This document shows positions 4,297-52,834 of a stretch of DNA of 53,002 nucleotides, piece by piece. The position numbers and the translations under genes were made by a program. Source of the DNA: Eubacteriales bacterium (GTDB lineage Bacteria > Bacillota > Clostridia > Oscillospirales > CAG-272); assembly GCA_045593965.1 (NCBI GenBank), contig JAZNXP010000124.1:1-53002 (forward strand), written 5' to 3'. Under the pieces are notes generated by a model. It was not told where the DNA came from and made no database searches. It saw only the letters and a program-made list of their open reading frames with translations. Positions within the stretch are counted from its first letter, which is position 1; the number at the start of each line of letters is the position of its first letter.

Positions 4297-4331
4297 CGTT
4301 CAAGATGCTTCGGACGCTTGGAGCTTGCCGA

Positions 4332-12218: not shown

Positions 12219-12376
12219 ACGTTCTCCTTTTTGCGCGGTTCTTTATGAACGGTTTTCTTCAGTATAACATACTTTTTCCGAAAAAACCACAAAATACAAA
12301 AAATAATTTCATTTTATAAAAGATTTTTTTGCAGCGTCGGAGTATAGTAAGAAAAAAACGAAAGGACTTTTTTATT

Positions 12377-13403: not shown

Positions 13404-13787
13404 ATGAAAATTGCATTGATCGCACATGATAAAAAGAAGGACGCGATGATCTCGCTCGCCATCAAATATAAAGACGTGCTCGCGCAGCACGAGCTTTGCG
13501 CCACGGGTACGACGGGTACGCTCGTCATGGGAGAAACAGGGCTGAAGATCACGCGTATGAAGAGCGGCCCTCTCGGAGGAGATCAGCAGATCGGCTCCAT
13601 GATCGCCGAGGGGAAGCTCGATCTGGTCCTGTTCTTGCGTGATCCGCTGACGGCACAGCCGCACGAGCCCGACGTTTCGGCACTTCTGCGCCTTTGCGAC
13701 GTGCAGAACATTCCGCTCGCGACAAACGTCAAGAGCGCCGAGATCATGCTTGATTGCCTTTCCAACGGCGGTTTTGCAACCGTATAA
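13404..13787 (+). CDS. mgsA: Methylglyoxal synthase
   Basis: 127 aa. [20 protein letters not shown] and [10 protein letters not shown] motifs. A GGAGGA RBS is present. Confidence 0.93.
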
Positions 13788-24159: not shown

Positions 24160-25656
24160 ATGAAAAAAGTAGTCACACTTCTGCTGTGCTTGCTGATGAT
24201 CGTTCCGCTTGTGCTTTGCGCTTGCAACAACAGTGGCGACGACGAAGGCGAGACCACGCAGGCGACAACGCTTCCCAGTGCCGAAGAGCAGGAAAAGGAC
24301 GCGACCATTGAAAACTGGTTGCCGATCCAGAGCTACGGCGTTGACGGCGGCAAGCGTCAGGTCAATATGCTGACGTGCAAGGACTATAACCGCAAGTATT
24401 ATTTCTTCCGCACCGATGACGGAAACGGCGATACGCTGGCGGCATCCTCTTACAGAAGATTTTGTAAGATGGAAGAGACCTACGACGTCGTGATGCAGAC
24501 GATCGAGCCTACCGATGGCGACATTCTGCATACGCTGTCCTCCTCCTTGATGGGACAGGGCGGTGAATACGACCTCGTATATCCCCATCCGACCTCCGAA
24601 ATGCAGGCAATTCTGGAGAACGGCTTCTACGAAAACCTTTATAACTATGAAAATATTCACTTGGAGCAGCCTTGGTGGAGTCAGAACCAGGTCAACTCCT
24701 ATACCATCGACGATAAGCTTTACATCGCCGTTTCGGATTTTTCTCTGAGCGGACAGGGCTTCATCGGTCTGATCTTCAACCGTGAGATCTATAACGATCT
24801 TCAGATTGAAGAGGATCTTTACGATCTGGTCGAAAATAACGCGTGGACGATCGCTAAGATGCGTGAGATCGTCATGAAGTACGGAACCGATTCCAACGGT
24901 GACGATAAGTACGACGAAAACGACCACTACGGATTTATCTATCAGCCCCAGCATACCAAGAATTTCTATTGGTCCTTCGGCGGAAAAATCGTTGAGAAGG
25001 ACGGCAACAACGATTATTATCTCGCAATTGATAATGATACTACCAACACCATGGCAACGGCGCTTTACAATCTTGCATACAACAGCGAGAACAAGGTGTT
25101 CGTTTCCAATCCGTGCGTATACGATACCTTCGCGGACTCCAACGGTTGGGCGATGTTCAAGAGCAGACAGGGCTTGTTTATGACCTATGACCTTGGCGGT
25201 CTGTATTCGCATCTGAACGAGATCCAATTCAAGATCGGCTATCTGCCCTACCCGAAGCTGACCGATGAGCAGACCGAGTATCCCGTTGTTTGCGCGGCAG
25301 GCTTCTTCGCAATCCCGAAGAAGGCACCCGACGCGGTAATGAGCAGCGTGCTTCTTGAGGCTTGCTCGATCTATAGCTATTCCAACTACCGTCCCACTTT
25401 CTTCAACACCATCCTTCTGGGTAGAATGTCCGAGCAGGCTGAGGACTACGCAATGCTTGAATTCCTCCACGAGAACAAGGTGTTTGACATGGGCTTTACC
25501 TTCCCCGCAGGCGGTTCCGATAACCTTCTGTATTGGGCGGTTGTCGGTGACGGCGAGCCCGGTGCTCTCGCATCCTTTATTCAGGCACGTTGGAGAGATA
25601 TGGACGATACTCTCGATTACATTGAAAACATCCGAAACGGTAAATTTGAAGGATAA
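24160..25656 (+). CDS. Extracellular solute-binding lipoprotein (ABC-type, family-1-like), no cognate permease in window
   Basis: 498 aa. Lipobox LVLCA|C followed by an acidic tether. The size and Trp/Tyr-rich two-lobe pattern (QPWWSQNQ, FYWSFGGKIV, GWAMFKSRQGLF) are typical of the ~500-aa sugar-binding lipoproteins of Firmicutes. Confidence 0.6.
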   Translation: MKKVVTLLLCLLMIVPLVLCACNNSGDDEGETTQATTLPSAEEQEKDATIENWLPIQSYGVDGGKRQVNMLTCKDYNRKYYFFRTDDGNGDTLAASSYRRFCKMEETYDVVMQTIEPTDGDILHTLSSSLMGQGGEYDLVYPHPTSEMQAILENGFYENLYNYENIHLEQPWWSQNQVNSYTIDDKLYIAVSDFSLSGQGFIGLIFNREIYNDLQIEEDLYDLVENNAWTIAKMREIVMKYGTDSNGDDKYDENDHYGFIYQPQHTKNFYWSFGGKIVEKDGNNDYYLAIDNDTTNTMATALYNLAYNSENKVFVSNPCVYDTFADSNGWAMFKSRQGLFMTYDLGGLYSHLNEIQFKIGYLPYPKLTDEQTEYPVVCAAGFFAIPKKAPDAVMSSVLLEACSIYSYSNYRPTFFNTILLGRMSEQAEDYAMLEFLHENKVFDMGFTFPAGGSDNLLYWAVVGDGEPGALASFIQARWRDMDDTLDYIENIRNGKFEG

Positions 25657-37437: not shown

Positions 37438-40400
37438 ATGAATATGAAAAAATTTCTTCTGATCGTGCTCTCTCTTGCCATGATCCTCACGGGTGTATTG
37501 GTTCCCGTGTCCGCAGGGGAAAGCGCGCAAAGCAACAATTCCGCGGCAACGGTAACCCCCACTGTCGGATATTCTCAAGCTGCGGCAGATGCGGCGCGGA
37601 TCGATCTTTCCTCGATCCCGTCCTTGAAGGGAGTTTCTTCTCCCAGTCAGAACGCCTATCAGATCGACAGTCTTGAGGCGTATGAAAATTTTGTATCCCT
37701 TGTCAACAGTAAGAACGATTTCAAGGGAAAAACAGTTTATCTTGCGTGCGATCTGGATCTTTCGCTGTTGACAGATCTTCAGACTCCCATCGGATTCCGT
37801 TCGGGGATCGAGGATCCTGCAAACACGTTCAACGAGACCGCACGCGCACAGTTCTGCGGCACCTTTGACGGTCAGGGCTATGAGATCTCGGGAGTTGCTG
37901 TCTATGCAACTATCATAGATTCCTGTTATTCCGCCCTGTTCGGTTGGGTAAACGGCGGAACGATCCAACATTTGAAAACAGAGGGATTTGTCAACCATGA
38001 TAAGGAGACGTATCCCGGTGATCATATCAACTTCGTCGGAACGGGCGGACTGATCGGATGCGCGGACGGCGCAACGGTCGTGAATAACGTCTATTGCAAC
38101 ATCGGCGTGGTCGGTTGCCTCCAATCGGCAGGCATTGTCGGTCGCGGCAGTGCAACCGTTACGAACTGCACCAACGCGGGCGATGTCTACGGTTCGACCT
38201 GCGCGGGCGGCATTGGCGGCTTCGTTTCGGGAATGACCGTGATCAACAGTCTGAATATCGGACATATCGTTTCCCCCTCGATCGCGGGCGGTATTCTTGC
38301 CCGTACGAGAGGCGTTTGCAACGTCAACGGATCGGTCAACGACGGTTGCGTTGAAAACTCGAATAACGACATCGCGGGCGGTATTATCGGACGTGCGGAA
38401 AACGAAAGCGGCGTTACCAATCTCGTCGGTTGCATCAATTACGGTCAGATCAAAACCGCGGACAACAAAAGCAACGCGTTCGGACATACCGACGGCAAGG
38501 CTAAATTGAACGTGGATGCATCCTGCGAGAGCAGAACGCGCGCAGGATACAGCACCGACCGCATCTGGCAGATGGATCTGATTCAGGTCACCGACCTCGC
38601 TTCGGTTTCCACCGTGACCAAAACGGCATATCGCATCACGAACGCGCAGGGCTTGATCCGCCTTTCCGAGCTTGTCAAGGCAGGGAACACCTTCAGCGGT
38701 GTGAAGATCTATCTGGATGCGGATATCGATATGAAGGATCAGGTCTGGGAGCCGATCGGCTACATCATGAGCTCGTCGAGCGGAACGACCAAAAAGCCCT
38801 TCTCGGGCGTCTTTGACGGTCAGGGACATACAATCTCCAACCTTGTTGCGGTACAGAATACGGACGTACGTTCGGGACTTGGACTGTTTGGCTTTGCGCA
38901 ATCCGCGACCATTCAGAATGTGATCCTTGATGCCACCTGCTCCTTTACCTTGAACGTGTCGAACGGATATAACGGCGCGGCGGCGGTGCTTGCGTATTCG
39001 GGTAGTTCCGTAACCGTGACGAATGTGATGACGTTTGCGACCGTCATCGGTAAAACGCACTCTGCGGGTATCGTTGCGCGCGGAGACGCAAATGCGTATT
39101 TCTGCACGAACTACGGATATATTTCCGGTGATAACTGCGCGGGCGGTATTTCCGCCTTCCGTACGTATGATGTGCGCGACTGTGTCAACTACGGTACGAT
39201 CCACAGCACCAGCATCGCAGGCGGTGTTGCGGCACGTATTTACGGTAACAGAACCTACCGAAATCTCATCAACCACGGAACCGTTATCGGTAAGAGCTAT
39301 GCCGGCGGCGTGATCGGACGCACCAACGGCGGTGCTCCCGTTCTTGAAAATTGCGCCAACTACGGCATGGTATCGGGACTTTATTCCAACGGTCTTTATA
39401 ACGTGACCGCCGGTGTGAATGCGGACGTGACCGTGACGAATTGCACGGATCGGGTCACTGTCGGATATTCCGCTTCCAACGTCACTCCCATCTATAACAT
39501 TGGAAAATCGATTTCCAAGTTTGCTTCAAGTCCCAATGAGTTTTCTTACTTCATTTCCACACCGCAGGAGCTCGTGACGCTTTCCGAGCTGGTGCAGGAA
39601 GGGCATACGTTCAAGGGTGTCACGATCTACCTGATGAACGATCTGAACATGAGAGGCGTGACGCTTTTGCCCATCGGCTACGGTGATCACGCGTTTGCGG
39701 GCATGTTTGACGGACGCGGATGTTCCATCTCCAATCTGAAAATGAACGTCAACAGCTCCGCATCGAACGCTCCCGAGTCTGCGGCACTCTTCGGCTTGAC
39801 GTCGAGCGCGCAGATCAAAAACCTCATTCTGGACGACACCTGCTTCATCATGCACGCAAATACCGTCGCCGCACAGCACGGCGCGGCGGCAAGTATTCTT
39901 GCAAAGAGTGAAGCCTTGACCTATGTATGTAACGTACGGAACTGCGCGGACGTCAGCGGTGCGACGTATACGGGCGGCATCGCGGGCAGAGGAGAGGTTG
40001 CTCTGATGAACTGCAGCAACCGTGGAGACGTTGTCGGCGGCAGCTTCGGCGGCGGTCTTGCGGCGAACGTCAACGGCAATATCAGCGCGTCCGAGAACTA
40101 CGGCTCTGTTCGCGCAAACGTTGCGGGCGGTGCTGTCGGCTTCCTGAATGCAGAGGACACCTTCTATACCTTCTCTTATAACTACGGCACCGTGATGGGA
40201 GCGGATTACGCAGGCGGTCTGGTCGGCGTGCTTCGCAAGAATTGTCAGATCCAAAATTGCGCAAACTATGGCGCGGTTGGATCCATGGCAAGTGCCGATG
40301 CGGTTACGGCATCCGTTTATAACGTCGAAAGCGGCTATACGGCAAACGTGACGCTGTCTCAAGGCGCGGATCGGGCTGTGATCGGATTTTCCTCGGAGCT

Positions 40401-42954
40401 GACGGACGGCGCGACCGATCCGAGTGCGCTTCTCTCCAAGGGCTTGGCAAAGAACATCGAGGATTATCAGCACACGCTCGATGCAGGTAAGATCACACAT
40501 CTGATCATTGACAGCGCATCGGATATGGCACTGTTTTCCAAGCTGATCAACACGACGACGAGCGGAGAGGGCATGACCTTCTGTCTGGCAGCAAACGTGG
40601 ATATGAATATCTATTGCTCTGAAGGTGATCATACATCCACAGCTCTCAATGATTTTGCTCCGATCGGCAGTGGAGATGTGTCTGCGGAAAAATATTTTGC
40701 CGGAATCTTTGACGGTATGGGACACACGATCAGCAATCTTCATCTGTCCGCAGGCGGCAACAGCGAGGTGATGATCGGTTTGTTCGGTAAGCTTTCGGGT
40801 GCGACCGTGAAAAATCTGATCATTGACGAAAGCTGCTCCTTCGGCGAAAACGGAAACGCGAACACCGCGGTTGCTTCTCTTGCACCCGTGATCGAGCATT
40901 CGACCGTACAGAACGTATGGACACGCGCATCCGTAGCTTCTGCGGGCAGTTATATCGGCGGCATGGCTTGCATTGCCAAGAATTCCGTTTTTGTGAACTG
41001 CACCGCCGATGCCACCGTTGTCGCGAACAGTGCTTACGCAGGCGGCTTCGTTGGTGAAGGCACGAACGTTTGTTATTATAACTGCCGCAATCTTTCCGTG
41101 ATCGAGGGCGTGACGTCCGTCGGCGCGGGCTTTACGGCAAACGACAAGGGCGACTGCATCTATTCGAATTGCACCAACCTCGGAAGCGCAAAGAACGCAT
41201 CCGTTCTGGGCGCGCTTGCGGGCGCAAAGACGGAGCAGACGACCAGTAAATACGTCGGTTGCTTCAACTACGGCTTCCTTGACGCGGATTCGCTCGTCGG
41301 AAGAGTGGATGCGGGCAGCTTTGAGCCGATGAAAAACACAAAGACTGCCGAGGACGTGGATAACTATCACTTCAACCATCTGCTTGGTGTGAAGAGCCAG
41401 ACTCGCGATAACGGCGACGGTACGTTCGATCTTCGCCTGATCGCGACGGTGGATTCGCTCAACTATCAGAGAGCGGGCTTCCGTCTGATTTACAACAACT
41501 CGATCGCGGGCTATTCGATCGACATTGACGTGCCCGTTTATACGGTATATACCTCGATTCTCGAAAACGGCAAGACCGTAAGCCCCACCGACGGATTTGC
41601 GGACACCTCCCGTTATTTCATCCTGCATACGGTGGAAAACATTCCCGACGCGTGCAAGGAGGAGCTGACGTCCAAGCTTTCGGTATTCGCAAAGGCATAT
41701 CTTGCCACCAAGGGCGGGGGATACATTGATTACTGTCCCATCGAGCCCATCGTGGTTCCCGAAAAGCTGACTCCCACGATCGAGACGAACGTCGGCATCA
41801 TCAACCGCTTTGACGTTCCGAACGTCTATGAGATCGGTAACACGGGTGTGACCGTGAATTTGCAGTATCACGCATGGCCCTCCGTGACCGTGGATGAAAA
41901 CGGTGTGCTTTACGCGTTTGCGTCCGCCCGTCTGGAGCATGTGGATCCGTTCGGACACACCTTGATGTATAAGAGCTTTGACGGCGGCAAGACGTGGTCG
42001 AAGCCGTATCTCATCACCGATACGCCCATGGATGACCGTGACGTCGGCGTTACCTACATGGGCAACGGTAAGATGCTCATTACCTATTTCCGCATCGCCT
42101 GCGCGAGCCTGATGAAGACCGACCAGTCCTTTACCACGGCAGACGGCAAGGTGATCAAGGGCAACGGCACTTATACGACGTGGCAAAAGCACAAGAACGT
42201 TGAGCAGAAGCACATCGACGCGGTTCTGGCATATTGGAGCACGCTCCATTCCTCCGAGATCTCCGCGCAAAGCTGGTGCCGCATCAGTGAGGATTACGGC
42301 GCAACGTGGACCGAACCGATCACCACGCCACTCTCCACACCTCACGGACCAATCCTGCTCCGCAACGGCAACCTGCTTTACGTCGGACGCGCAAGCGTTA
42401 CGGGTGTTGGCGGTGACGGTATTTACGCATTCATCAGCACGGACGGTGGATATACATGGAATTTCAAGGCGAAAATTTATGAAAAAATCGATGCGACCTT
42501 CTGTGAGCCCCACGTTGTGGAGCTTTCCAACGGCAGATGGCTGGTTGCCATTCGCGTGCAGGACGGTGGCTTTGAGAACGAATACCGCATCTACACCTGC
42601 TATTCGGATGACAAGGGTGAGACGTGGACGCAGCCCAAGCTCGTGACCGACAAGAACGGCAAGGAGCTTTACGGAACGCCTCCGCAACTTATCCAATTGG
42701 ATAACGGCGCGGTCGTGATGACCTACGCAAGCCGCAGACAGGCGGATAGCGGTGAATACGCGATCATCAGCTATGACGGCGGCATGACGTGGGACGAGGA
42801 GATCTGTCTCTGCCTGCGCAAGGGCGGCACGAGCGATATCGGATATCCCATGACGGTACACCTTGGAAACGGTGAGCTTGTTACGGTCTACTATCAGGCT
42901 TATGAGACAGACAGCTATTGCTCGTTCCTCTATACCAAGTGGTCGCTGAAATAA
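37438..42954 (+). CDS. Giant secreted protein G3, more divergent paralog of G1/G2
   Basis: From ORF 37363..42954. I start it at MNMKKFLLIV (ATG 37438), giving 1838 aa. Signal ...PVSA|GE. Four GLUG-like modules, a spacer, and a propeller at ~41761-42951 (LQYHAWPSVTVDENGVLYAF, SFDGGKTW, SEDYGATW, STDGGYTW, SDDKGETW, SYDGGMTW). Confidence 0.8.
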   Translation: MNMKKFLLIVLSLAMILTGVLVPVSAGESAQSNNSAATVTPTVGYSQAAADAARIDLSSIPSLKGVSSPSQNAYQIDSLEAYENFVSLVNSKNDFKGKTVYLACDLDLSLLTDLQTPIGFRSGIEDPANTFNETARAQFCGTFDGQGYEISGVAVYATIIDSCYSALFGWVNGGTIQHLKTEGFVNHDKETYPGDHINFVGTGGLIGCADGATVVNNVYCNIGVVGCLQSAGIVGRGSATVTNCTNAGDVYGSTCAGGIGGFVSGMTVINSLNIGHIVSPSIAGGILARTRGVCNVNGSVNDGCVENSNNDIAGGIIGRAENESGVTNLVGCINYGQIKTADNKSNAFGHTDGKAKLNVDASCESRTRAGYSTDRIWQMDLIQVTDLASVSTVTKTAYRITNAQGLIRLSELVKAGNTFSGVKIYLDADIDMKDQVWEPIGYIMSSSSGTTKKPFSGVFDGQGHTISNLVAVQNTDVRSGLGLFGFAQSATIQNVILDATCSFTLNVSNGYNGAAAVLAYSGSSVTVTNVMTFATVIGKTHSAGIVARGDANAYFCTNYGYISGDNCAGGISAFRTYDVRDCVNYGTIHSTSIAGGVAARIYGNRTYRNLINHGTVIGKSYAGGVIGRTNGGAPVLENCANYGMVSGLYSNGLYNVTAGVNADVTVTNCTDRVTVGYSASNVTPIYNIGKSISKFASSPNEFSYFISTPQELVTLSELVQEGHTFKGVTIYLMNDLNMRGVTLLPIGYGDHAFAGMFDGRGCSISNLKMNVNSSASNAPESAALFGLTSSAQIKNLILDDTCFIMHANTVAAQHGAAASILAKSEALTYVCNVRNCADVSGATYTGGIAGRGEVALMNCSNRGDVVGGSFGGGLAANVNGNISASENYGSVRANVAGGAVGFLNAEDTFYTFSYNYGTVMGADYAGGLVGVLRKNCQIQNCANYGAVGSMASADAVTASVYNVESGYTANVTLSQGADRAVIGFSSELTDGATDPSALLSKGLAKNIEDYQHTLDAGKITHLIIDSASDMALFSKLINTTTSGEGMTFCLAANVDMNIYCSEGDHTSTALNDFAPIGSGDVSAEKYFAGIFDGMGHTISNLHLSAGGNSEVMIGLFGKLSGATVKNLIIDESCSFGENGNANTAVASLAPVIEHSTVQNVWTRASVASAGSYIGGMACIAKNSVFVNCTADATVVANSAYAGGFVGEGTNVCYYNCRNLSVIEGVTSVGAGFTANDKGDCIYSNCTNLGSAKNASVLGALAGAKTEQTTSKYVGCFNYGFLDADSLVGRVDAGSFEPMKNTKTAEDVDNYHFNHLLGVKSQTRDNGDGTFDLRLIATVDSLNYQRAGFRLIYNNSIAGYSIDIDVPVYTVYTSILENGKTVSPTDGFADTSRYFILHTVENIPDACKEELTSKLSVFAKAYLATKGGGYIDYCPIEPIVVPEKLTPTIETNVGIINRFDVPNVYEIGNTGVTVNLQYHAWPSVTVDENGVLYAFASARLEHVDPFGHTLMYKSFDGGKTWSKPYLITDTPMDDRDVGVTYMGNGKMLITYFRIACASLMKTDQSFTTADGKVIKGNGTYTTWQKHKNVEQKHIDAVLAYWSTLHSSEISAQSWCRISEDYGATWTEPITTPLSTPHGPILLRNGNLLYVGRASVTGVGGDGIYAFISTDGGYTWNFKAKIYEKIDATFCEPHVVELSNGRWLVAIRVQDGGFENEYRIYTCYSDDKGETWTQPKLVTDKNGKELYGTPPQLIQLDNGAVVMTYASRRQADSGEYAIISYDGGMTWDEEICLCLRKGGTSDIGYPMTVHLGNGELVTVYYQAYETDSYCSFLYTKWSLK

Positions 42955-42966
42955 AGATTTTCCATT

Positions 42967-43001
42967 GTCGGCGGAAGGGGACAGTCTCCCTTTCCACCGA
43001 C
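42967..43001 (+). promoter_or_regulatory. Intercistronic imperfect hairpin (G3-S1 spacer)
   Basis: gtcggcggaagggga / tccctttccaccgac forms a 15-bp stem with one mismatch and one G-U pair, loop cagtc. No T-run. Confidence 0.4.
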
Positions 43002-43081
43002 CGATGATCGAAAAGAATTTGAAAAGACGCGCGGACGTCTTTGAAAATATAAAACACGCATAGTAGAAGGAGACAAAAACT

Positions 43082-44515
43082 ATGGCTTGTGAAAGAAAGA
43101 AGCTGACGGCAGAGATCGTCAAGGACATCGGCATCATTCACCGTTACGATGAGCCGAGAAAATACGAGATCGGTAAGACGGGTGTGACGGTCGATCTGCA
43201 ATACCAGGCATGGCCCTCTGTCATCGCGGACGAGAACGGCGTGCTTTATGCCTTCACCTCGGGCAGACTCTGGCATATCGATCCCTTTGGACACACGCTC
43301 ATGTATAAGAGCTATGATAACGGCATGACGTGGTCGGAGCCGATCATCGCGAATGATACGCCCATGGATGACCGCGACGTCGGAGCAGTCTATCTCGGCA
43401 ACGGCAAGATGCTGATCACCTATTTCCGCATTGCCGCGCAAGACCTGATGGCGGACGAGCAGACCGTGACGACTGCGGACGGTGTGGTGCTCAAGGGCAC
43501 ATGTCCCTCCACCAAGGATGCGGACGGAAATTACACCTTTGATTATATTCGTTGGCAGAACAGAAAATATACGACTCCCGAGCAGGTCGCGGCAGTGTTT
43601 GACTATTGGTCCACCATGACCGAGGCAGAGCTTGAGGGCGGCTGCTGGTCATTGCTTTCCGAGGACTACGGAAAGACCTGGTCGGCTCCTCGCCGCACAC
43701 CCGTATCCTCTCCGCACGGACCTCTTCTGCGCAAGGACGGTTCCTTGCTCTACGTCGGACGCGGCGGCTACGAGGGCGACGGTATTTATGCCGTTGTTTC
43801 CAAGGATTTGGGCGAGACGTGGGAATACCTTGCGACCATTCACAAAAACGGCACGTTGCTTTACTGTGAGCCTCACGCCGTTGAGCTGGAGAACGGCAGA
43901 CTGATCGTTGGCATCCGTGTGCAGGGCTTGTCGCACAACATCGGCGGCAATACCTATATCGGCGTGGGATTTTCCCACGACGGAGAACAGATCTACGGAA
44001 GTCAGGGAACGGTGTTCACCATTGGCGATGACCTCGTACCCGTCCACTATGACGGTGAAGGGCAGTGGCAAAGAAACCGTACGTATTACCGCATTTATCA
44101 GAGCATTTCCGATGACGGCGGAAAGACGTGGACCACGCCCGAAATGATCAAGGTCGAGGACCCCACGGGCAATCTCGAATTGACGCACGGTTATCCTTAC
44201 GGCACACCCCCTCACCTTCTTCTTCTGAAGAGCGGAGAGATCGTTCTGACCTATTCCACGCGTGAATATGACATCGGTCAGAGAGCGATCGTCAGCTACG
44301 ATAACGGAGATACGTGGGATCGGGAGATCATTCTTTGCAATAAGCCCTACGATCCCGCTCCCGACGGAAACGGCGGACGTCATTATTATCACGCGGACAT
44401 CGGCTATCCCGCAACGGTGGCGACAGCGGACGGCGGACTGCTTTCGGTCTATTATCAGGCATATACGGGCGACCGCTTCTGCTCGTTCCTCTATACCAAG
44501 TGGTTCTTGAAATAA
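43082..44515 (+). CDS. S1: leaderless stand-alone G-subtype sialidase-like propeller
   Basis: 477 aa. Starts MACERKKLTAEIVKDIGIIHRYD with no hydrophobic signal. GAAGGAGA RBS. Blocks LQYQAWPSVIADENGVLYAF, SYDNGMTW, SEDYGKTW, SKDLGETW, SDDGGKTW and SYDNGDTW. Confidence 0.8.
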   Translation: MACERKKLTAEIVKDIGIIHRYDEPRKYEIGKTGVTVDLQYQAWPSVIADENGVLYAFTSGRLWHIDPFGHTLMYKSYDNGMTWSEPIIANDTPMDDRDVGAVYLGNGKMLITYFRIAAQDLMADEQTVTTADGVVLKGTCPSTKDADGNYTFDYIRWQNRKYTTPEQVAAVFDYWSTMTEAELEGGCWSLLSEDYGKTWSAPRRTPVSSPHGPLLRKDGSLLYVGRGGYEGDGIYAVVSKDLGETWEYLATIHKNGTLLYCEPHAVELENGRLIVGIRVQGLSHNIGGNTYIGVGFSHDGEQIYGSQGTVFTIGDDLVPVHYDGEGQWQRNRTYYRIYQSISDDGGKTWTTPEMIKVEDPTGNLELTHGYPYGTPPHLLLLKSGEIVLTYSTREYDIGQRAIVSYDNGDTWDREIILCNKPYDPAPDGNGGRHYYHADIGYPATVATADGGLLSVYYQAYTGDRFCSFLYTKWFLK

Positions 44516-44587
44516 AAGGATCTTTGAAGAAAGTGTGAGCTTTCTTCTGAAAAAAATAAACACATAAGCTGAAAAGGAGACAATATT

Positions 44588-46018
44588 ATGGCTTGTGAGA
44601 GAAAAAAACTGACGGCGGAGATCATTAAGGATATCGGTATCATTCACCGCTTCGATCCTCCGCACAAGTATGAGATCGGAAACACGGGCGTGACCATTGA
44701 CCTGCGCTATCAGGCATGGCCCTCCGCGATGGTCGATGAGAACGGCGTCATCTATGCTTTTATCTCGGGCAGACAGAAGCACATCGACCCGTTCGGTCAG
44801 ACGTTGCTCTATAAGAGCTATGACAACGGTGACACCTGGAGCGATCCCATCATCGTCAACGACACTCCCATGGACGACCGTGACGTTGGTGTTGCATACC
44901 TTGGAAACGGTAAGATCCTGATCACCTATTTCCGCATTTCCGCATGGGGACTCATCGGCAAGGATCAGTCCTTTGTGAACGTTGAGGGCAAGGAGATCAG
45001 AGGTGGTCGTCCCGATACCAAAAACGAACAGGGCTATCACACGGACGGATACGCGAGCTGGCAAAATCCTGCGTTCTCCTCTCCCGAGCAGGTGCAGGCA
45101 GTCTTTGATTATTGGAAGACCATGACCTATGAGGAGCTGGACGGCGGCACGTGGTGCCTCACCTCCGAGGACTACGGCGAGACGTGGTCCAAGCCCATGC
45201 CCACGCCTTGCTCCACGCCTCACGGACCGATCGTTCGCAAGGACGGCTCCTTGCTCTACGTCGGACGCGGCAGAGTTGCGGGCGTTGGCGGTGACGGCAT
45301 TTACGCATTCACCTCCACCGATTTCGGAAAAAGCTGGCAGTTCCTTTCCAAGATCCACGAGAACACCTGCCTGACCTATTGCGAGCCTCACGTCGTTGAG
45401 CTGGATAGCGGCAGACTGGTCGTCGGCATCCGCGTGCAGATCCAGGATCAGACCATCGACGGTAAGCTTTATCAGGTCATCGGCTTTGATCCCACAGGCG
45501 TACCGCTTTGGGTCAACAAGGATGACGGAAGAAAATATTTCCACATCACCGAAAGCCGCGTTCCCGTTGAGGTTGAGGATCGCGCGCCGCACACCACCTA
45601 CCGCCTCTACACCTGCTTCTCGGATGATGGCGGACTGACCTGGTCTCAGCCCACGGTCGTCAGCGCAACCGACCCCGAGGGATTGGAGTCTGTTTCGGGA
45701 CAGCCCTACGGTACGCCTCCTCACCTGCTCAAGCTGGACGGCGGCGAGATCGTGATGACGTACGCGACCAGAAACTTCGATATTGGTCAGAGAGCGATCA
45801 TCAGCTACGATGACGGCAAGACTTGGGACAAGGAGATCATCCTTTGCAACAAGCCCTATGACACCGAGCCCGGCTCCCCCTATAACTATAAGCAAGGAGA
45901 CATCGGATATCCCGCAACGGTCAAGCTTGCGGACGGCAATCTGCTCACGGTTTACTATCAGGCGTATACCGATGACCGCTATTGCTCCTTCCTCTATACC
46001 AAGTGGTCTCTGAAATAA
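44588..46018 (+). CDS. S2: leaderless stand-alone G-subtype propeller, tandem duplicate of S1
   Basis: 476 aa. Starts MACERKKLTAEIIKDIGIIHRFD. About 45 nt of upstream leader, including the RBS, resemble the S1 leader. Same motif set as S1. Confidence 0.8.
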   Translation: MACERKKLTAEIIKDIGIIHRFDPPHKYEIGNTGVTIDLRYQAWPSAMVDENGVIYAFISGRQKHIDPFGQTLLYKSYDNGDTWSDPIIVNDTPMDDRDVGVAYLGNGKILITYFRISAWGLIGKDQSFVNVEGKEIRGGRPDTKNEQGYHTDGYASWQNPAFSSPEQVQAVFDYWKTMTYEELDGGTWCLTSEDYGETWSKPMPTPCSTPHGPIVRKDGSLLYVGRGRVAGVGGDGIYAFTSTDFGKSWQFLSKIHENTCLTYCEPHVVELDSGRLVVGIRVQIQDQTIDGKLYQVIGFDPTGVPLWVNKDDGRKYFHITESRVPVEVEDRAPHTTYRLYTCFSDDGGLTWSQPTVVSATDPEGLESVSGQPYGTPPHLLKLDGGEIVMTYATRNFDIGQRAIISYDDGKTWDKEIILCNKPYDTEPGSPYNYKQGDIGYPATVKLADGNLLTVYYQAYTDDRYCSFLYTKWSLK

Positions 46019-46030
46019 GTTGCATTTTGC

Positions 46031-46064
46031 AAACGCCCCGCTTTTCTAAGCGGGGCGTTTTTGC
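46031..46064 (+). terminator. Strong intrinsic terminator; first clear one since 13.8 kb
   Basis: Stem acgccccgctt (46033-46043) / aagcggggcgt (46048-46058), loop ttct, then TTTTT. Confidence 0.85.
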
Positions 46065-46209: not shown

Positions 46210-46238
46210 TTGACAACACAGAAAAAATGTGCTATACT
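46210..46238 (+). promoter_or_regulatory. Near-consensus sigma-A promoter of the A1 gene
   Basis: TTGACA (46210-46215), 17-nt spacer ending in TGc, then TATACT (46233-46238). Confidence 0.7.
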
Positions 46239-46323
46239 GATAAAAACCAAAAAACAAATGCAACAAAGAAATAATCGCAGGGATGTGTTCCTTGCGTTTA
46301 TAAATACAAAAAGGAGAAGAAAC

Positions 46324-48834
46324 ATGAAAAAAACAGTTAGAAGCTTTTGCTTGCTGTTGGCGGCTTTGATGATCCTCACGACCGTGATCGTGACCGTTTC
46401 CGCAGAGCCCGAGGCAGCACCTGCAGACAACGGAATCATCGGCTACAGTGATTCTCTTGTCGAAAAGGTTGACTTAGCAGACATTGCCGACCTTACCACG
46501 TACGACGCAGCAAACGTTGCTGCAGCGTACAAGATCAAAGACGTTGCGGGCTACCTCAAGCTGGTAGAGATCGTCAACGCAGAGACCGCAGGCGGTAAAG
46601 TCCTCAAGGGCGTTACCATTTACCTGGAAAACGACATTGACATTTCCGAGGTTGAAGGTCAGTCTCCCATCGGTTATCTGAAGGGTTATTACGACGGTGC
46701 GAAGCATATTGAAGCGAGCGCGATCTTCGCGGCAAACCTCGACGGTCAGGGACACACCATCAGCGGTATCAACGTTCACAAGAAGATCGGTGACAATGAC
46801 CAGTTGGTTGCTTTCATCGGTTATGCAGCTGATGCTACCATCAAGAACATTAAGCTCGTTGGTACCACCCAGCAGGATGTCGGTACGTTGCCTGAAGGTT
46901 ACAAAACCGATATCGCAGGCTGCGGCGCGGTTACCGCTCAGTCCGCCAACGTAACGTTCTATAACGTTTACAACCAGATCTCCATCGTTAGCGCAAACCG
47001 TCAGGCAGGCGTATTTGCTGCAAGAGACGGCGGTCCCGTTGTGATCAAAAACTGCACCAACGTTGCAAGCTGCAAGGGTAATGATACCATTGGATTTACT
47101 GGCTTCAGAGTAAGATCTGAAATCTCCAACTGCTTCAACGCAGGAAAATTGCAGGGTCAGAAGGCAGGTGCCTTCATCGGACGTGGAACGGACAACTCCT
47201 CCGTTACCAACTGCGTCAACGTTGGTGCGATCACCAGTACCTCGACCAATCCTTCATCTTCTTATGCGGGCTTGGTAAACGTTGATACCGCCAATGCTAC
47301 CATCAAGGTTTCGAACTGCATGAACTACGGTGTTCTGACCGCTGTCACGACCGCTCTGACCAACCAGATCAACGGTACCATCGAGGCAACCGATTGCTAT
47401 GATCTCGTTGGCAAGCTCTACATCCCCGTTGTTGCTCCCGATGCAAATGCTGTTGGTTATTCCAGCGCAAGAGTTGACGCTGTTGACGTTCTTGCTCTGA
47501 CCGACATTACCACCGTTGCGGATGCTCTTACCGAGACCGCTTATAAGATCACCTCTGTTGAGGGCTTCAAGAAGCTGGATGAACTGGTATGCGCAGGTGT
47601 TAGCTTCTCCGGCGTTACCGTTTACCTTGCAAACGACGTTAACTTCGAAGGCGTTACTGACTTCTCTCCCATCGGTTGGGGCGGTCAGACCGCTGTTAAA
47701 AACAACCAGGCTCCCGCAGTCGCGTTCAACGGTACGTTCGATGGCCTTGGCAACATGGTTTCCAACGTAACTGCTGTACGCAGCGAGTCCCAGATGCTGG
47801 ATCCCAGCGATACTGCTAACTATGGTGGTATCTCCTTCTTCGGTATTCTGAACGGCGCAACCATCAAGAACTTCATCATTGATGCTTCCTGCTCCTTCAC
47901 CTATACCGCAGATCCTCACGACCACGGTTGCGCAGCTGCATTCGCATTTGCAGCACACAACACCACGATCGATAACTGCCTGAACCTTGCTTCTGTTACC
48001 AGCAGCTCTCGCTTCAGCGCAGGCTTTGTCGGACGTGTTCTCGGTTCTCTCACCATTACCAACTCCACCAACGCAGGTAAGGTTACCGGTTGCCAGAGCG
48101 TAGCAGGCTTTGCAGGCTACATTGCAGCGACCACCACCGTTACCAACTGCCGTAACATTGGCGAAATCATCTGCGCTAAGGGTTACGATGCAAACAACGC
48201 TCTCGTTGGTTCCGACCACTCCGCTGCAGGTATCGTTGCTTGGGCACGCGCACAGGTAACCATCGACGGTTGTACCAACAACGGCAACATCTCCGGTGTT
48301 GACAACGTTGCAGGTATCATCGGCGAAGTCGGTGACTCCCAGTATCAGAGCGTAAGTGTAGAAGTTAAAAACTCCTTCAACTACGGCAATCTGAGCATGG
48401 ATGATCCCAAGACCGAAAATAATAACGTTCCCGTAATGGCAACCGTAGGCGAGGTTTGGGCTGAAGTTGCTACTTCGAACTTCACCAACGAAAACTGCTT
48501 CGATCTCCGTGGCGTATATGATCTCTCCATCGGTTTGGAAGCTCTGGTGCCCGATTACAATATAATCGTTGCTCCTCCCGCATCCTCCGAGATCCCCGGT
48601 TCTTCCGAGACTCCCGGTTCTTCCGAGACTCCCGGTTCCTCCGAGACTCCTGCGACCACCACGGCAAAGACCACTGCTGCTACCACAAAGGCTACCACCA
48701 CCGCAGCTACCACGGGCGCTGACGCTCCTGCTGCTGACGATGAGGGTTGCGGTTCGACCGTGATCGGCGGCATCGCTGTGATCATGCTCGTATCCGGTGC
48801 AGCTGTTACGCTCTTCAAGAAGAAGGAAGACTGA
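46324..48834 (+). CDS. A1: secreted GLUG/beta-helix-like protein (2 modules) with Thr/Pro-rich stalk and C-terminal GCG-TM-KKKED tail
   Basis: From ORF 46210..48834. I start it at MKKTVRSFCLL (ATG 46324, AAAGGAGAAG RBS), giving 836 aa. Signal ...TVSA|EP. Modules begin IGYSDSLVEKVDL and VGYSSARVDAVDV. No propeller. The tail reads DDEGCGSTVIGGIAVIMLVSGAAVTLFKKKED. Confidence 0.75.
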   Translation: MKKTVRSFCLLLAALMILTTVIVTVSAEPEAAPADNGIIGYSDSLVEKVDLADIADLTTYDAANVAAAYKIKDVAGYLKLVEIVNAETAGGKVLKGVTIYLENDIDISEVEGQSPIGYLKGYYDGAKHIEASAIFAANLDGQGHTISGINVHKKIGDNDQLVAFIGYAADATIKNIKLVGTTQQDVGTLPEGYKTDIAGCGAVTAQSANVTFYNVYNQISIVSANRQAGVFAARDGGPVVIKNCTNVASCKGNDTIGFTGFRVRSEISNCFNAGKLQGQKAGAFIGRGTDNSSVTNCVNVGAITSTSTNPSSSYAGLVNVDTANATIKVSNCMNYGVLTAVTTALTNQINGTIEATDCYDLVGKLYIPVVAPDANAVGYSSARVDAVDVLALTDITTVADALTETAYKITSVEGFKKLDELVCAGVSFSGVTVYLANDVNFEGVTDFSPIGWGGQTAVKNNQAPAVAFNGTFDGLGNMVSNVTAVRSESQMLDPSDTANYGGISFFGILNGATIKNFIIDASCSFTYTADPHDHGCAAAFAFAAHNTTIDNCLNLASVTSSSRFSAGFVGRVLGSLTITNSTNAGKVTGCQSVAGFAGYIAATTTVTNCRNIGEIICAKGYDANNALVGSDHSAAGIVAWARAQVTIDGCTNNGNISGVDNVAGIIGEVGDSQYQSVSVEVKNSFNYGNLSMDDPKTENNNVPVMATVGEVWAEVATSNFTNENCFDLRGVYDLSIGLEALVPDYNIIVAPPASSEIPGSSETPGSSETPGSSETPATTTAKTTAATTKATTTAATTGADAPAADDEGCGSTVIGGIAVIMLVSGAAVTLFKKKED
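48583..48654 (+). repeat. 4 x 18-nt tandem repeat encoding (SSE[IT]PG)n in the A1 stalk
   Basis: tcctccgagatccccggt, tcttccgagactcccggt, tcttccgagactcccggt, tcctccgagactcctgcg. Confidence 0.85.
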
Positions 48835-49054: not shown

Positions 49055-52000
49055 ATGAAAAAGAACGTAAAGATACTGTCACTTGTGATGGCGTTTCTGA
49101 TGATCCTCTCCGCATCGGTCATGACCGTCTTTGCAGATCTTTCTGTGCAAGAAAGTCCTGACATCGGATATCAGCAATGGCATGTGGAAAAAGTCGATCT
49201 GACCGATGTCCCCAATATTTTGGATTTTCCCGTAGCGGGGGCAACTGCGTATCAGATCACGAACGACGCGGGACTGGTGTTTCTTTCTGCGACCGTCAAT
49301 GAAGGCTTTGCCTTCGAGGGAATGAAGATCTATCTCGGTCAGGATATTGATATGGAAGATGTTACCATGGCACCCATCGGTATCCGTGAGTTCCGTTTGG
49401 ATGAAAGCGGGAATGCGATCGTACTGTATCAGGATCGCGCTTTTGCAGGTATTTTTGACGGACAGGGACACACCGTTCGGAATTTGGTGATGGACTATGA
49501 CGTGGAAGAGATCCAATCGGTCGGACTGTTCGGCAATCTTGCGGGAACGGTCAAAAATCTGAAGCTGGATTCCTCTTGCAGCATCACGTGGACGAATGAA
49601 TTTCAATCTCCCTATCGGGATTACGTTTCCGCGGGTGTTATTTCGGCGTTTTCGAATAACGCGCGGTTTTGGAATATCTATTCCGAGGCGACGCTGTTTT
49701 CCGCGGGACACGGAGCGTTGACTGCGGGACGCGGAACGGTCGATGCGGCGTATTATTGCACCAACCGCGGCGACATTACGGGCAACAATACGGCAGGCGG
49801 CGTTACGGGCTTTGACGTTGGTGGCGAGATCTTCTTCTGCGACAACTACGGCACAGTCACCGCCGATAAAGCGGCAGGCATCGTCGGACGCACCCGCAAG
49901 ACGCACGAGATCCGTTACTGTGTCAATTACGGCGAGGTGAGGGGAAGATCCTATGCGGCGGGCATCGTTTGCCTGGAGCGCAACTCGAACGTAAATCTGT
50001 ATAGTTGCATCAACTACGGTGAGATCTTGGCAAGCTCTGCCTTGATGACGTCGGGCGTGGCTTACGATTCGGGAGAGGCAAATATTATATACTCCTGCGA
50101 TTCCAATTGTAAGGATCTTTCGGGCGGCGCGGACGCAACGCTTGAGATCGTCGGCTATTCAAAGGATCACGTAGCTCCCGTTGATCTGACGGGCATCCCC
50201 GCATTGGAGCAGCTTGAGGGACTTCCCAAGGCAAGCGCTTACACAATCTCCTCGGTTGAGGGCTTTGCGGTCATGGATCAGCTCATTTCGAACAATATCG
50301 ATCCATTTAACGGCGTGACCGTTTATCTGACGCAGGACGTTGATTTCCAAGGCGTGGAGTTCTCTCCGATCGGCTGGAGCGGACAGCGTTCGACCGCGGT
50401 CAACACCGTTCCCGCAACTGCGTTCACGGGCATCTTTGACGGTCTTGGACATAAGGTCAGCAACGTCAAGGCGACGATGTCTGAATCGAACGGAACCGAC
50501 AGCACCAATTACGGCGGCGTTTCCTTCTTTGGCATTCTCAAGGGCGCGACGGTCCGCAATTTTGAGATCGATCCCACCTGTTCCTTTACCTATACGGCAG
50601 ATCCGCACGACCACGGCTGCGTGGCGGGCTTTGCCTTCGCGGCACACAATACGGTATTTGAAAACTGCATGAACGGCGCAATACTGCGCAACACCTCTCG
50701 CTTCTCGGGCGGTATCGTTGCGCGCGCACACGGCTCGCTGACGGTCAAGAATTGTACCAATACGGGTATCGTCGACGGTCGTCAGAGTGTTGCGGGCATC
50801 GTTGCCTATAACGGCGCGGCACTGACGGTGAGCAACTGTCGCAACACGGGAGAGGTGATCGGCAAGGTACACCGCACAACAAACGGCATCGTCGGCTCGG
50901 ATCATGCCGCGGCAGGCATCGTTGCGTGGTCAAGAGCCAACGTTTCGATCAAAAATTGCATCAATAACGCAGACGTTTACGGCTCGGATAACGTCGCGGG
51001 CATCATCGGTCAGATCGGTGACGGCATGAATTATTCCTTCACGGCGATCCTGACGAACAATGCCAATTACGGCCTGATCGGCTTTTACGAAATGCGAGAT
51101 ATCTACGCGATCGTTGCGCCGGAGGGAGAAATCTACGCGTTTTGTTATGTCTCCGATCTTCAGCTTTTGAACAATATTGATCTTCGCGGCGGAAATGATC
51201 CGACGTTGGGTGGAGCAACGACCCCCACCGTCACGCAAACAACAAAGCCGACGCCACCGTCGACAACACCCACCACTCCCACAGAACCGATCATACCGCC
51301 GTCTATGCGCGATGACGTTGGATATTCCGCCGACGTGATCAAGGGAGTTGATCTGGAAGGTATTACTGATCTTGCCACGGTTTCGACGGATGCGAGCGTT
51401 TTGCGAGAATCCACTTATAAGATCACCTCCGTTGAGGGCTTTGAGGTGCTGGACGCGCTGATCTCCAAGGGCGTAAGCTTCGGTTGGGTTACGGTCTATC
51501 TTGCAAATGACGTTGATTTTATCGACGTGGATGACTTTTCTCCCATCGGCTGGGCAGGGCAGACGCAGACGGCGGTGAACGTCGCTCCCAAGGTCGCCTT
51601 CAACGGCACGTTTGACGGCTTGGGACATAAGGTCAGCAACGTCATCGGCATCGCTGTGGAGTCGCATTCTCTTAACGGCGATGACACCGTCAATTATGGC
51701 GGCGTTTCCTTCTTCGGTGTCCTCAACGGCGCAAGGGTCAGGAATTTTGTGATCGATGATAGCTGTGTGTTCATGTACTTGGCAGATCCCAACGACCACG
51801 GATGCGCGGCAGGCTTTGCGTTCGCGGCGCATAACAACACGGTGTTTGAAAACTGCATGAATATGTCAACGGTCATCAATACGTCCCGTTTTTCGGGTGG
51901 GTTCGTTGCGCGGGCGTATGACGAGGTGTATTTTTTAAATTGCACCAATACGGGCATCATCGGCGCATGCCAGAACGCGGCGGGCATCGTTGCGTACTGT

Positions 52001-52834
52001 TCGGCGGAGCTGATCATGACGAATTGCCGAAACGCGGGATACGTTGAGTGCTATAAGGGTTACGGCGAATATGACGGCGGTTTGCTGGTCGGCTCGGATC
52101 ATTCCGCGGCAGGCATGGTCGGATGGTTGAGAAACGGCGGCGTGATCATGAATTGCATCAACAACGGTGAGATCTGCGGCGTGGATAACGTCGCGGGCAT
52201 TGTCGGACAGCTTGGAAACGCTTGCGGAAGCGAGATCGACGTCTATATGGAAAAGAATATCAACTACGGCTGGATCGTGTTGAGTGAGGATAGCAAGACC
52301 GAGAACGGAAACATTCCCCGCATTGCCAAGAACGGCTGCATCTGGGCGGAAAACAACGTCACGGGTTCTCTCATTGAGCAACTCAACGAGGACCTTCGCG
52401 GAGAAGAGGATCCCACGTGGGACGTTCAGATTCCTCCCGTGATCGATCCCGATAACAGCGACACGTCCACCGATCCCACACAATCCGACAACACGGAGCC
52501 GACCACCAATCCCGATGACACCGATCCGTCCACGAACACGGATCCGTCCACGAACACGGATCCCACCGTCGGAACGGATGCTTCTACCGATCCCGATGCA
52601 TCCACGGACGGTCCGACGGTAAGCGAGAGCTTGGTCACCACCGAGACGACTGCCGAGATCACGGAGCAGACCACCACGCAAGCTCCCGTCACATCGGGAA
52701 CGACGTCGGCGACTACCACGGGTGCGTCCAACGCAACCACAAACGGATGCGGCGGTACGGTTCTTGGCGGCATGGCTGTGATCCTGCTCGTATCGGGCGC
52801 GGCTGTGACGGTATTGAAAAAGAAAGAGGACTGA
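49055..52834 (+). CDS. A2: secreted GLUG/beta-helix-like protein (3 modules) with Thr/Pro/Asp-rich linkers and the same GCG-TM-KKKED tail
   Basis: 1259 aa. Signal ...TVFA|DL. Modules begin IGYQQWHVEKVDL, VGYSKDHVAPVDL and VGYSADVIKGVDL. The internal linker is TTPTVTQTTKPTPPSTTPTTPTEP. The tail reads NGCGGTVLGGMAVILLVSGAAVTVLKKKED. Modules 2 and 3 resemble A1 module 2 (FTYTADPHDHGC[AV]A[AG]FAFAAHN). Confidence 0.75.
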   Translation: MKKNVKILSLVMAFLMILSASVMTVFADLSVQESPDIGYQQWHVEKVDLTDVPNILDFPVAGATAYQITNDAGLVFLSATVNEGFAFEGMKIYLGQDIDMEDVTMAPIGIREFRLDESGNAIVLYQDRAFAGIFDGQGHTVRNLVMDYDVEEIQSVGLFGNLAGTVKNLKLDSSCSITWTNEFQSPYRDYVSAGVISAFSNNARFWNIYSEATLFSAGHGALTAGRGTVDAAYYCTNRGDITGNNTAGGVTGFDVGGEIFFCDNYGTVTADKAAGIVGRTRKTHEIRYCVNYGEVRGRSYAAGIVCLERNSNVNLYSCINYGEILASSALMTSGVAYDSGEANIIYSCDSNCKDLSGGADATLEIVGYSKDHVAPVDLTGIPALEQLEGLPKASAYTISSVEGFAVMDQLISNNIDPFNGVTVYLTQDVDFQGVEFSPIGWSGQRSTAVNTVPATAFTGIFDGLGHKVSNVKATMSESNGTDSTNYGGVSFFGILKGATVRNFEIDPTCSFTYTADPHDHGCVAGFAFAAHNTVFENCMNGAILRNTSRFSGGIVARAHGSLTVKNCTNTGIVDGRQSVAGIVAYNGAALTVSNCRNTGEVIGKVHRTTNGIVGSDHAAAGIVAWSRANVSIKNCINNADVYGSDNVAGIIGQIGDGMNYSFTAILTNNANYGLIGFYEMRDIYAIVAPEGEIYAFCYVSDLQLLNNIDLRGGNDPTLGGATTPTVTQTTKPTPPSTTPTTPTEPIIPPSMRDDVGYSADVIKGVDLEGITDLATVSTDASVLRESTYKITSVEGFEVLDALISKGVSFGWVTVYLANDVDFIDVDDFSPIGWAGQTQTAVNVAPKVAFNGTFDGLGHKVSNVIGIAVESHSLNGDDTVNYGGVSFFGVLNGARVRNFVIDDSCVFMYLADPNDHGCAAGFAFAAHNNTVFENCMNMSTVINTSRFSGGFVARAYDEVYFLNCTNTGIIGACQNAAGIVAYCSAELIMTNCRNAGYVECYKGYGEYDGGLLVGSDHSAAGMVGWLRNGGVIMNCINNGEICGVDNVAGIVGQLGNACGSEIDVYMEKNINYGWIVLSEDSKTENGNIPRIAKNGCIWAENNVTGSLIEQLNEDLRGEEDPTWDVQIPPVIDPDNSDTSTDPTQSDNTEPTTNPDDTDPSTNTDPSTNTDPTVGTDASTDPDASTDGPTVSESLVTTETTAEITEQTTTQAPVTSGTTSATTTGASNATTNGCGGTVLGGMAVILLVSGAAVTVLKKKED
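52523..52576 (+). repeat. 18-nt tandem repeat (2 perfect + 1 degenerate unit) encoding DPSTNT in the A2 stalk
   Basis: gatccgtccacgaacacg occurs twice (52523-52558), followed by gatcccaccgtcggaacg. Confidence 0.8.

Follow-up and report, generated by a model that had tools for sequence, protein, structure and literature searches.

Two adjacent genes, S1 and S2, in a 53,002-nucleotide (nt) stretch of DNA from a Eubacteriales bacterium (contig JAZNXP010000124.1 of assembly GCA_045593965.1; hereafter, the window) encode stand-alone propellers of predicted sialidase fold that carry no export leader. They share their locus with exported paralogues, namely, six lipobox lipoproteins (L1-L5, L7) and three Sec-leader giants (G1-G3), with a further leaderless propeller (L6), with a lipoprotein (X), and with two exported proteins that lack a propeller (Y1, Y2) (Table 1). 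S-type proteins are always leaderless and form an old, monophyletic clade whose genes, in several genomes, follow immediately after the gene for a giant. By analogy with the leaderless sialidase NanH of Clostridium perfringens, we consider it probable, on balance, that S1 and S2 work in the cytoplasm as isoenzymes of the exported propellers and finish imported fragments.

In-frame stops lie 5 to 6 codons upstream of both ATGs (three-frame translation), so no N-terminal extension of either protein is possible, and at three orthologous loci (L015, L016, and L102) such stops lie 12 to 17 codons upstream of the S start. A mis-called start with a hidden upstream leader was thus ruled out. Kyte-Doolittle hydropathy, averaged over 12-residue windows in the first 70 residues, peaked at 1.32 in S1 and 1.34 in S2, compared with 2.6 to 3.3 in every exported paralogue or neighbor (L1-L5, L7, X, G1-G3, Y1, and Y2). 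The N-termini of S1 and S2 contain no hydrophobic core, no twin arginine (RR), and no lipobox following a hydrophobic region, and no hydrophobic stretch precedes the A-C at residues 2 and 3. An AAGGAG sequence is found 8 to 9 nt before each ATG, and the nucleotide homology between the two genes begins 15 nt upstream of the ATG. S1 and S2 are intact genes, and their own ribosome-binding sites are probably used for translation. An earlier annotation of this DNA, made from the sequence by a model (the original prediction), had described both proteins as leaderless and stand-alone, with good ribosome-binding sites and stops upstream of their starts, and these descriptions all hold.

Both proteins match Pfam family BNR_2 (PF13088) well above the cutoff of 31.4 bits (S1, 77.9 bits; S2, 70.3 bits). 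Asp-boxes, with the repeat pattern S-x-D-x-G-x-T-W, were matched by PF02012, and five are visible in S1 (SYDNGMTW, SEDYGKTW, SKDLGETW, SDDGGKTW, and SYDNGDTW). An NCBIfam scan of S1, X, Y1, and Y2 gave no usable match. The AlphaFold2 model of S1 (pLDDT, 94.1; pTM, 0.92) predicts a six-bladed propeller, for which Foldseek returned a probability of 1.00 to 5hx0, NanA, NEU1, NanI, KDNases, and a pseudaminidase. The best match was 5hx0, followed by GH33 sialidases, KDNases, and pseudaminidase at 12 to 18% identity; likewise, a family profile matched 5hx0 with an E value of 5e-31 and sialidases with E values of 1e-15 to 1e-9.

The start of S1 and S2 coincides with a domain boundary, as had been proposed. 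The two proteins share the N-terminus MACERKKLTAEI, and in an alignment of all propellers they align from residue 8 onward (KLTAEI...) with KLTAKVTTSIGTVKNF of G2, KLTPTIETNVGIINRF of G3, and NLTAEILESNLPIGHL of L4. The sequence ahead of this point in the paralogues is a T/A/E-rich tether in the lipoproteins and a stalk in the giants. Residues 1 to 9 are coil in the S1 model, and the first strand comprises residues 10 to 20. As the S lineage and the propellers of the giants share an ancestor, it is not surprising that S1 and S2 begin at this boundary. The closest paralogue of both is the C-terminal propeller of G3 (56 to 58% amino acid identity), and an insertion in blade 4 is common to S1, S2, and G1, as originally noted, and is kept in all S orthologues.

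Across 117 family members, 25 residues never vary, and neither S1 and S2 nor any other paralogue of the window has lost one of them, in agreement with the earlier observation that the catalytic-like blocks are kept. Two of them, placed by sequence and profile alignment only, coincide with catalytic residues of GH33: Y442 (in DIGYP) aligns with the nucleophile Tyr (GYS of 4bbw), and E263 (in CEPH) aligns with the catalytic Glu. In the profile alignment, R279 and R394 correspond to the second and third Arg of the GH33 triad. GH33 exo-sialidases, KDNases, and pseudaminidase (NanA, NanI, NEU1, AfKDNase, and PA2794) thus share with S1 and S2 the six blades, the Asp-boxes, and a catalytic set consisting of the Tyr of blade 6, the Glu and Arg of blade 4, and the Arg of blade 5. 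However, no RIP motif, which supplies the first Arg of that triad, was found in S1; the first inner strand reads Y-Q-A-W-P, and the family has A/G-W-P at the expected RIP position, which was placed by strand order and not by alignment. No sialidase of the PDB aligns with the first ~127 profile positions (the N-terminal third). The acid/base Asp, which GH33 has on the blade-1/2 loop, could not be placed, the candidates being D96, which is invariant, and D97 and D99, which are nearly so. No GH33 counterpart was found for the invariant residues R62, H65, R98, and H212; R62 or R98 might substitute for the RIP arginine. S1 and S2 thus belong to the sialidase superfamily (BNR_2), while membership in GH33 proper is not established, the RIP motif being undetected.

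The closest structural relative, 5hx0 (Dfer_1899 of Dyadobacter fermentans; a structural-genomics entry of unknown function), matched S1 with a Foldseek E value of 3.6e-19 and a target-normalized TM score of 0.76. It shares the E...R, PxH, R...R, and DLGYP blocks with S1 and S2 but differs from them in its low identity (18%), an unalignable N-terminal third, and the lack of the S-type insertions. Full-text literature searches for the 5hx0 code or the Dfer_1899 tag found no relevant paper. Searches for literature on PF13088 subfamilies likewise found nothing relevant, a ribose-utilization preprint naming the BNR domain only in a figure legend.

Eight S-type proteins from other assemblies are 57 to 99% identical, align over their full length, start at the same strand, and are all leaderless. 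S1 has an orthologue in P0002 (68% identity), and S2 has orthologues in P0005 (95%), P0003 and P0004 (84%), and P0006 (68%); each of S1 and S2 is closer to orthologues elsewhere than to the other. S1 and S2 are old paralogues under purifying selection, with ~1.36 synonymous (dS) and ~0.29 nonsynonymous (dN) substitutions per site (dN/dS, ~0.22). In a neighbor-joining tree, S-type proteins from at least four genomes form a monophyletic clade that falls within the clade of the giants, with the G3 propeller as its sister, and none of them groups with the giant encoded in the same genome. This tree was built without bootstrap, and three comparison giants extend past the propeller, so that the 470-residue slices used may cover it incompletely. 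Two protein-pattern scans of the GTDB representative set for S orthologues yielded nothing useful.

Synteny is conserved as well. In two metagenome-assembled genomes (MAGs) from NCBI (L015 and L016), lipoprotein propellers and one giant are followed ~90 nt downstream by a leaderless S gene. A Logan contig (L102) has the order leaderless L6-type propeller, L7-type lipoprotein, X-type gene, giant, and S. The AAGGAG arrangement before S is repeated at all three loci. In three other genomes, leaderless S-type orthologues of 57 to 68% identity are encoded ~90 nt past a giant. A third MAG encodes seven propellers, X, and then two giants.

Between the G3 stop and S1 lies a GC-rich hairpin without a U-tract, and comparable hairpins (10 to 13 bp, no proper U-tract) separate giant and S in L015 (~9931-9961) and L016 (~9935-9962); the hairpin of L102 (~9914-9950) is weaker and does not exceed shuffled sequences (z = -1.4). 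The hairpin between G3 and S1 may act as an attenuator or as a stabilizer of the mRNA 3' end, setting the ratio of giant to S. A canonical terminator follows S2, implying that a transcription unit ends there, and a strong promoter-like site (46210-46238; 11 of 12 matches) is found inside the listed open reading frame (ORF) of Y1. The U-tract-less hairpin before S1, the terminator after S2, and the separate promoter-like site of Y1 together suggest that S1 and S2 are probably part of the giants' transcription unit, possibly in attenuated form.

The original prediction regarded the start MACERKK as invariant and curious. This view was not borne out by the orthologues, as S-type proteins begin with MACERKK, MACEKRK, MANERKK, MEKK, MENKK, MAIKK, or MAINK. 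Within the first 14 residues of 10 S-type sequences, K7 is the sole invariant position, and position 3 is C, N, I, or absent. Because the orthologue starts vary, Cys3 has no conserved role, and its candidacy as a lipidation or functional site was rejected. MACERKK is best regarded as a lineage-specific tail, not a conserved signal, and would form a short flexible tail ahead of the first beta-strand.

Nor is the identity of the two N-termini over 12 residues exceptional: a second run of identity between S1 and S2, RKDGSLLYVGRG, is equally long, NDTPMDDRDVG spans 11 residues, and several others span 8 to 11. Four of the first 12 codons differ synonymously. Over the first 30 codons, the proportion of synonymous differences (pS) is 0.62, equal to the gene-wide value of 0.63, and that of nonsynonymous differences (pN) is 0.10. 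Recent gene conversion as the source of the identical N-termini was therefore ruled out, and the identity points to constraint at the protein level. At most, an ancient conversion between S1 and S2 may lie behind the shared N-terminus, as the starts of P0002 (S1 lineage) and P0006 (S2 lineage) differ.

As a separate observation, the 3' ends of L5 and L6b (...AGATGGCGT(C/T)TGAACGA...; 21196-21226 and 22556-22589) read M-A-S/F-E-R out of frame and, counted by hand, are identical to the S start ATGGCTTGTGAAAGAAA (43082-43098 and 44588-44604) at 14 of 17 bases. The likeness could be chance or a trace of the origin of the S start. It is speculation that "MAC" derives either from a propeller gene further upstream, whose 3' end would be read in another frame, or from a lipobox of which it is the relic. 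An [AS]-C-[DN] lipobox is present in all lipoprotein paralogues; S nests with the Sec-type giants and not with the lipoproteins.

The leaderless state is common in the wider family. About 94 of the 120 best relatives have no hydrophobic leader, and most are ~360 amino acids (aa) long and labeled 'exo-alpha-sialidase [Clostridia bacterium]'. Relatives of this minimal form are encoded in the GTDB representative genomes by no fewer than 574 stretches. The minimal proteins (e.g., P0014, P0031, and P0101) resemble S1 and S2 in family (34 to 37% identity), in having all invariant residues, and in being leaderless, and they are often linked to AraC genes. They differ in lacking the S-type N-terminal entry strand and both S-type insertions and, P0031 excepted, in having no adjacent giants.

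Some relatives are physically tied to transporters. In the fusion protein P0119 (591 aa, from Logan; L109, 6306-8083), a PnuC-type (PF04973) transporter domain comes first, and a K/R-rich linker behind its final membrane helix leads to a C-terminal propeller of the minimal kind. The positive-inside rule and the topology of PnuC would place this propeller in the cytoplasm. Furthermore, the gene for P0021 overlaps the end of a PnuC-like gene, and that for P0025 sits between genes for a solute-binding protein (SBP) and a major facilitator superfamily (MFS) transporter. Adjacency to PnuC as a general rule was not supported by the commonest neighbors in 79 loci of minimal relatives: the PnuC-like family is not among the 25 commonest neighbor families there, in a survey that made no search aimed at PnuC.

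The neighbors at these 79 loci include AraC regulators (16 loci), GFO/IDH oxidoreductases (7 loci, counted by looking at the sequences and not by Pfam scan), DHDPS/NanA-type lyases (5 loci), and HpcH/HpaI aldolases (2 loci). Loci with a neighbor of the latter two types are L017 (9114-9905), L115 and L120, and L113, L118, L133, L144, and L185. DHDPS/NanA-type lyases and HpcH/HpaI aldolases cleave 2-keto-3-deoxy acids, and their presence is therefore a weak hint that the sugar released by the family may be an ulosonic (sialic-type) acid.

A combination of exported and leaderless isoenzymes has a precedent. NanH of C. perfringens is leaderless, is cytoplasmic in growing cells, and coexists with the secreted NanI and NanJ (PMC5127137). 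NanH can be set free by lysis of sporulating mother cells and then acts extracellularly, and why a bacterium keeps a cytoplasmic sialidase is a question posed in the C. perfringens literature (PMC8092135). Like S1 and S2, NanH is a bare catalytic propeller that lacks a signal peptide and occurs alongside larger secreted multidomain isoenzymes in a Gram-positive anaerobe; three features that define this class (no secretion signal, the catalytic domain alone, and exported multidomain paralogues alongside) are found for S1 and S2, and the fourth, a cytoplasmic location, is predicted for them. The six-bladed fold is shared, and NanH (8um0) is among the Foldseek and HMMER matches. However, the relationship is remote (phmmer E = 4e-6 over ~60 residues; 12 to 15% identity in the structural alignment), and S1 and S2 differ from NanH by the lack of a recognizable RIP motif, an extra N-terminal strand, two large insertions, and about a dozen paralogues in one locus.

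In the scheme that we favor, the exported paralogues would cut a glycan outside the cell, and the fragments would be taken up, perhaps aided by X. In the cytoplasm, S1, S2, and L6 would then strip these fragments of their last terminal residue, which is probably a 2-keto-3-deoxy (ulosonic or sialic-type) acid. The common ancestry of the S lineage and the giants' propellers would go back either to duplication of a giant's propeller, which gained a start of its own, or to fusion of an S-like gene with a stalk. Among the three explanations given in the original prediction, that of cytoplasmic finishing enzymes is the best supported, by the conserved and majority leaderless state, by the PnuC fusion, and by the identity of X as a divergent SBP. 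Several points weigh against it. No ABC permease or other transporter gene is present in the window or beside X in L102 and L105, which leaves the scheme without an import route, and the cytoplasmic location of S1 and S2 is deduced from the missing signal. The aldolase and lyase neighbors occur at only ~9% of the loci, and the RIP arginine and the acid/base Asp could not be mapped onto GH33. Moreover, S-type proteins have 56 to 58% identity to the giants' extracellular propellers but only ~36% to the minimal cytoplasmic forms, so the evidence from the PnuC fusion concerns a different subclade.

A more far-reaching version seems to us unlikely. Here, the S lineage would be the head of a surface enzyme returned to the cytoplasm in a fixed giant-hairpin-S module, with one kind of catalytic head active on either side of the membrane and the hairpin setting the outside-to-inside ratio, and the substrate would be a non-sialic ulosonic acid or other glycoside, making this a new glycoside hydrolase family. 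The module is indeed seen in several hindgut Clostridia, and S nests among exported propellers, next to G3.

Export of S1 and S2 by a non-Sec route or by piggybacking on another protein, the second explanation originally offered, found no support. The Sec system exports unfolded chains, and piggyback export is implausible because the giants use plain Sec leaders without twin arginines. Release by lysis is possible, and S1 and S2 could accumulate in the cytoplasm and act outside after lysis of the cell or mother cell, or after nonclassical release, supplementing the exported paralogues. The leaderless NanH of C. perfringens, freed by mother-cell lysis and active extracellularly (PMC8092135), provides a model, S-type propellers are most like the extracellular propellers of the giants, and no import system is encoded nearby. 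However, no secretion-related gene or motif was found at the locus, the wider family is linked to importers (PnuC fusion, MFS, and SBP), and the leaderless state has been kept through long divergence beside genes that already supply an exported enzyme; we give this account a small chance. Even less probable is that S1 and S2 are not enzymes at all but cytoplasmic sugar-binding or sensor proteins, feeding, for example, AraC-type regulators. Although AraC is the commonest neighbor of the minimal relatives (16 of 79 loci), also occurs in the window, and the classical RIP arginine was not detected, all invariant residues are kept, including the Tyr/Glu pair and the two arginines that align with GH33, and no DNA-binding or signaling domain is attached.

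Two further possibilities concern the relationship of S1 and S2 to their neighbors. The gene order S1, S2, Y1, Y2 and the homology of the propeller-less Y1 and Y2 to the N-terminal modules of the giants (27 to 35%) would fit a split giant, in which S1 and S2 are detached heads, exported by some route and docked on the stalks Y1 and Y2. This is very improbable, as a terminator separates S2 from Y1, which has its own promoter-like site, and there is no apparent way to export a propeller that has already folded. Furthermore, Y-like sequence in L015 and L016 occurs only within the giant, so the conserved partner of S is the giant itself rather than a Y gene. The third explanation of the original prediction, that S1 and S2 are silent donor cassettes feeding the giants by gene conversion, is the least credible of all and was not upheld. 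The two genes are paralogous to the propellers of the giants and directly downstream of them, and they share the blade-4 insertion with G1. However, silent cassettes of the pilS or vls type are truncated or promoterless copies that have no start of their own, contain near-identical tracts, and are not under purifying selection, and S1 and S2 differ from them on all three counts: they are full-length ORFs with their own AAGGAG and ATG, their dN/dS is ~0.22, and no long near-identical tract links them to a giant. Compared with the remaining paralogues, the two genes reach a nucleotide identity of at most 74.6% over 402 nt or of 81% over 74 nt. In addition, the S clade is monophyletic across genomes, apart from the giant of the same genome, and has the blade-4 insertion in all orthologues.

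Table 1. Positions of the S genes, their expression signals, and other features of the window
Feature	Position	Strand	Description	Basis
S1	43082..44515	+	Stand-alone BNR_2 propeller without leader, 477 aa; six blades, sialidase fold	ORF, Pfam, AlphaFold2, Foldseek
S2	44588..46018	+	Leaderless paralogue of S1 (63% aa identity), 476 aa	
Ribosome-binding site of S1	43067..43072	+	AAGGAG, 9 nt 5' of ATG	Read from sequence
Ribosome-binding site of S2	44574..44579	+	AAGGAG, 8 nt 5' of ATG	Read from sequence
GC-rich hairpin without U-tract	42963..43006	+	Between G3 stop and S1; -41.2 kcal/mol, z = -4.47	
Intrinsic terminator	46032..46062	+	Directly 3' of S2; GC-rich stem of ~11-12 bp, then UUUUU	
G3	37438..42954	+	Sec-exported giant; probable start MNMKKF..., inside listed ORF from 37363	
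L6	21382..22589	+	Third leaderless propeller (MKKLIPEFY..., own AAGGAG), interrupted by a single frameshift near 21726	
X	24160..25656	+	Lipoprotein, divergent family-1 solute-binding protein	
Y1	46210..48834	+	Sec-exported, propeller-less; real start probably MKKTVRSF at ~46324	
Y2	49055..52834	+	Sec-exported, propeller-less	

The claim that the window encodes two leaderless propellers stands for S1 and S2 but is incomplete, as L6 is a third, broken by a frameshift. L6 is 84 to 85% identical, in two frames (tblastn), to an intact leaderless orthologue of 402 aa (P0106), and the frameshift reflects an error of sequencing unless L6 was inactivated very recently and is now a pseudogene. Because L6 is also leaderless, starting at the entry strand arose at least twice in the family.

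The giants G1 to G3 are 1863 to 1975 aa long and combine a C-terminal propeller with the ordinary Sec leaders described above. Y1 and Y2 are built from repeat modules of the giants' N-terminal parts and gave only a weak match to the GLUG motif; at the C-terminus of Y1, a Ser/Thr/Pro-rich linker leads to a hydrophobic anchor. The SBP mentioned in the original prediction was recognized in X through a homologue. X has no Pfam match of its own, but SBP_bac_1 and SBP_bac_8 are both matched by its homologue P0128 (46% identical), and a further relative bears the name extracellular solute-binding protein. X is rare (29 matches) and lies directly ahead of the giant or giants in every case of this locus type (the window; L102, 2315-3778; L105, 10001-11518). 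It is best described as an orphan SBP.

Several other genes were noted in the window. Beside a GH78 rhamnosidase (9031-11367, minus strand), a 598-aa lipoprotein is encoded (7205-9001, minus strand) that has a Thr-rich tether and matches BNR_2 only faintly (E = 0.008); it could represent one more propeller, though a highly diverged one. The region that separates the rhamnosidase from the propeller array contains an AraC regulator (11469-12218, minus strand) and a homologue of inosine-uridine-type nucleoside hydrolases (12329-13282, plus strand), and a small methylglyoxal synthase-like ORF is found at 13404-13787. Many long antisense ORFs are artifacts in this window, which has 53% GC; the ORF at 4305-5609 (plus strand) is spurious, and the opposing one (4332-5663, minus strand) reads as a two-G-domain GTPase (GRPNVGKSTLFN..., GKPNAGKSSLIN...) that is Der/EngA-like by eye. 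Identity of the Obg protein reaches 90% to MAGs of Eubacteriales, Oscillospiraceae, and Clostridia, most of them recovered from the caecum, colon, or rectum of ruminants, and places the bacterium among uncultured Eubacteriales and Oscillospiraceae.

Overall, the locus is best read as a large, probably glycan-degrading gene cluster and not as a cassette system for antigenic variation. It combines exported (lipoproteins and giants) and probably intracellular (S1, S2, and L6) members of one uncharacterized sialidase-fold family in an uncultured, Oscillospiraceae-like bacterium of the herbivore hindgut. By analogy, a leaderless isoenzyme beside exported paralogues is a pattern known from NanH, so the explanation would be an ordinary one in a subfamily that is uncharacterized. 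The giant-S pair and the transporter-fused relatives provide a second, independent system for asking why a cytoplasmic sialidase is kept. It is the family and the whole locus, more than the MACERKK start, that deserve attention, and S1 and S2, being soluble, single-domain, and confidently modeled, are the family members that should be easiest to express in the search for the array's substrate and the most tractable point of entry.

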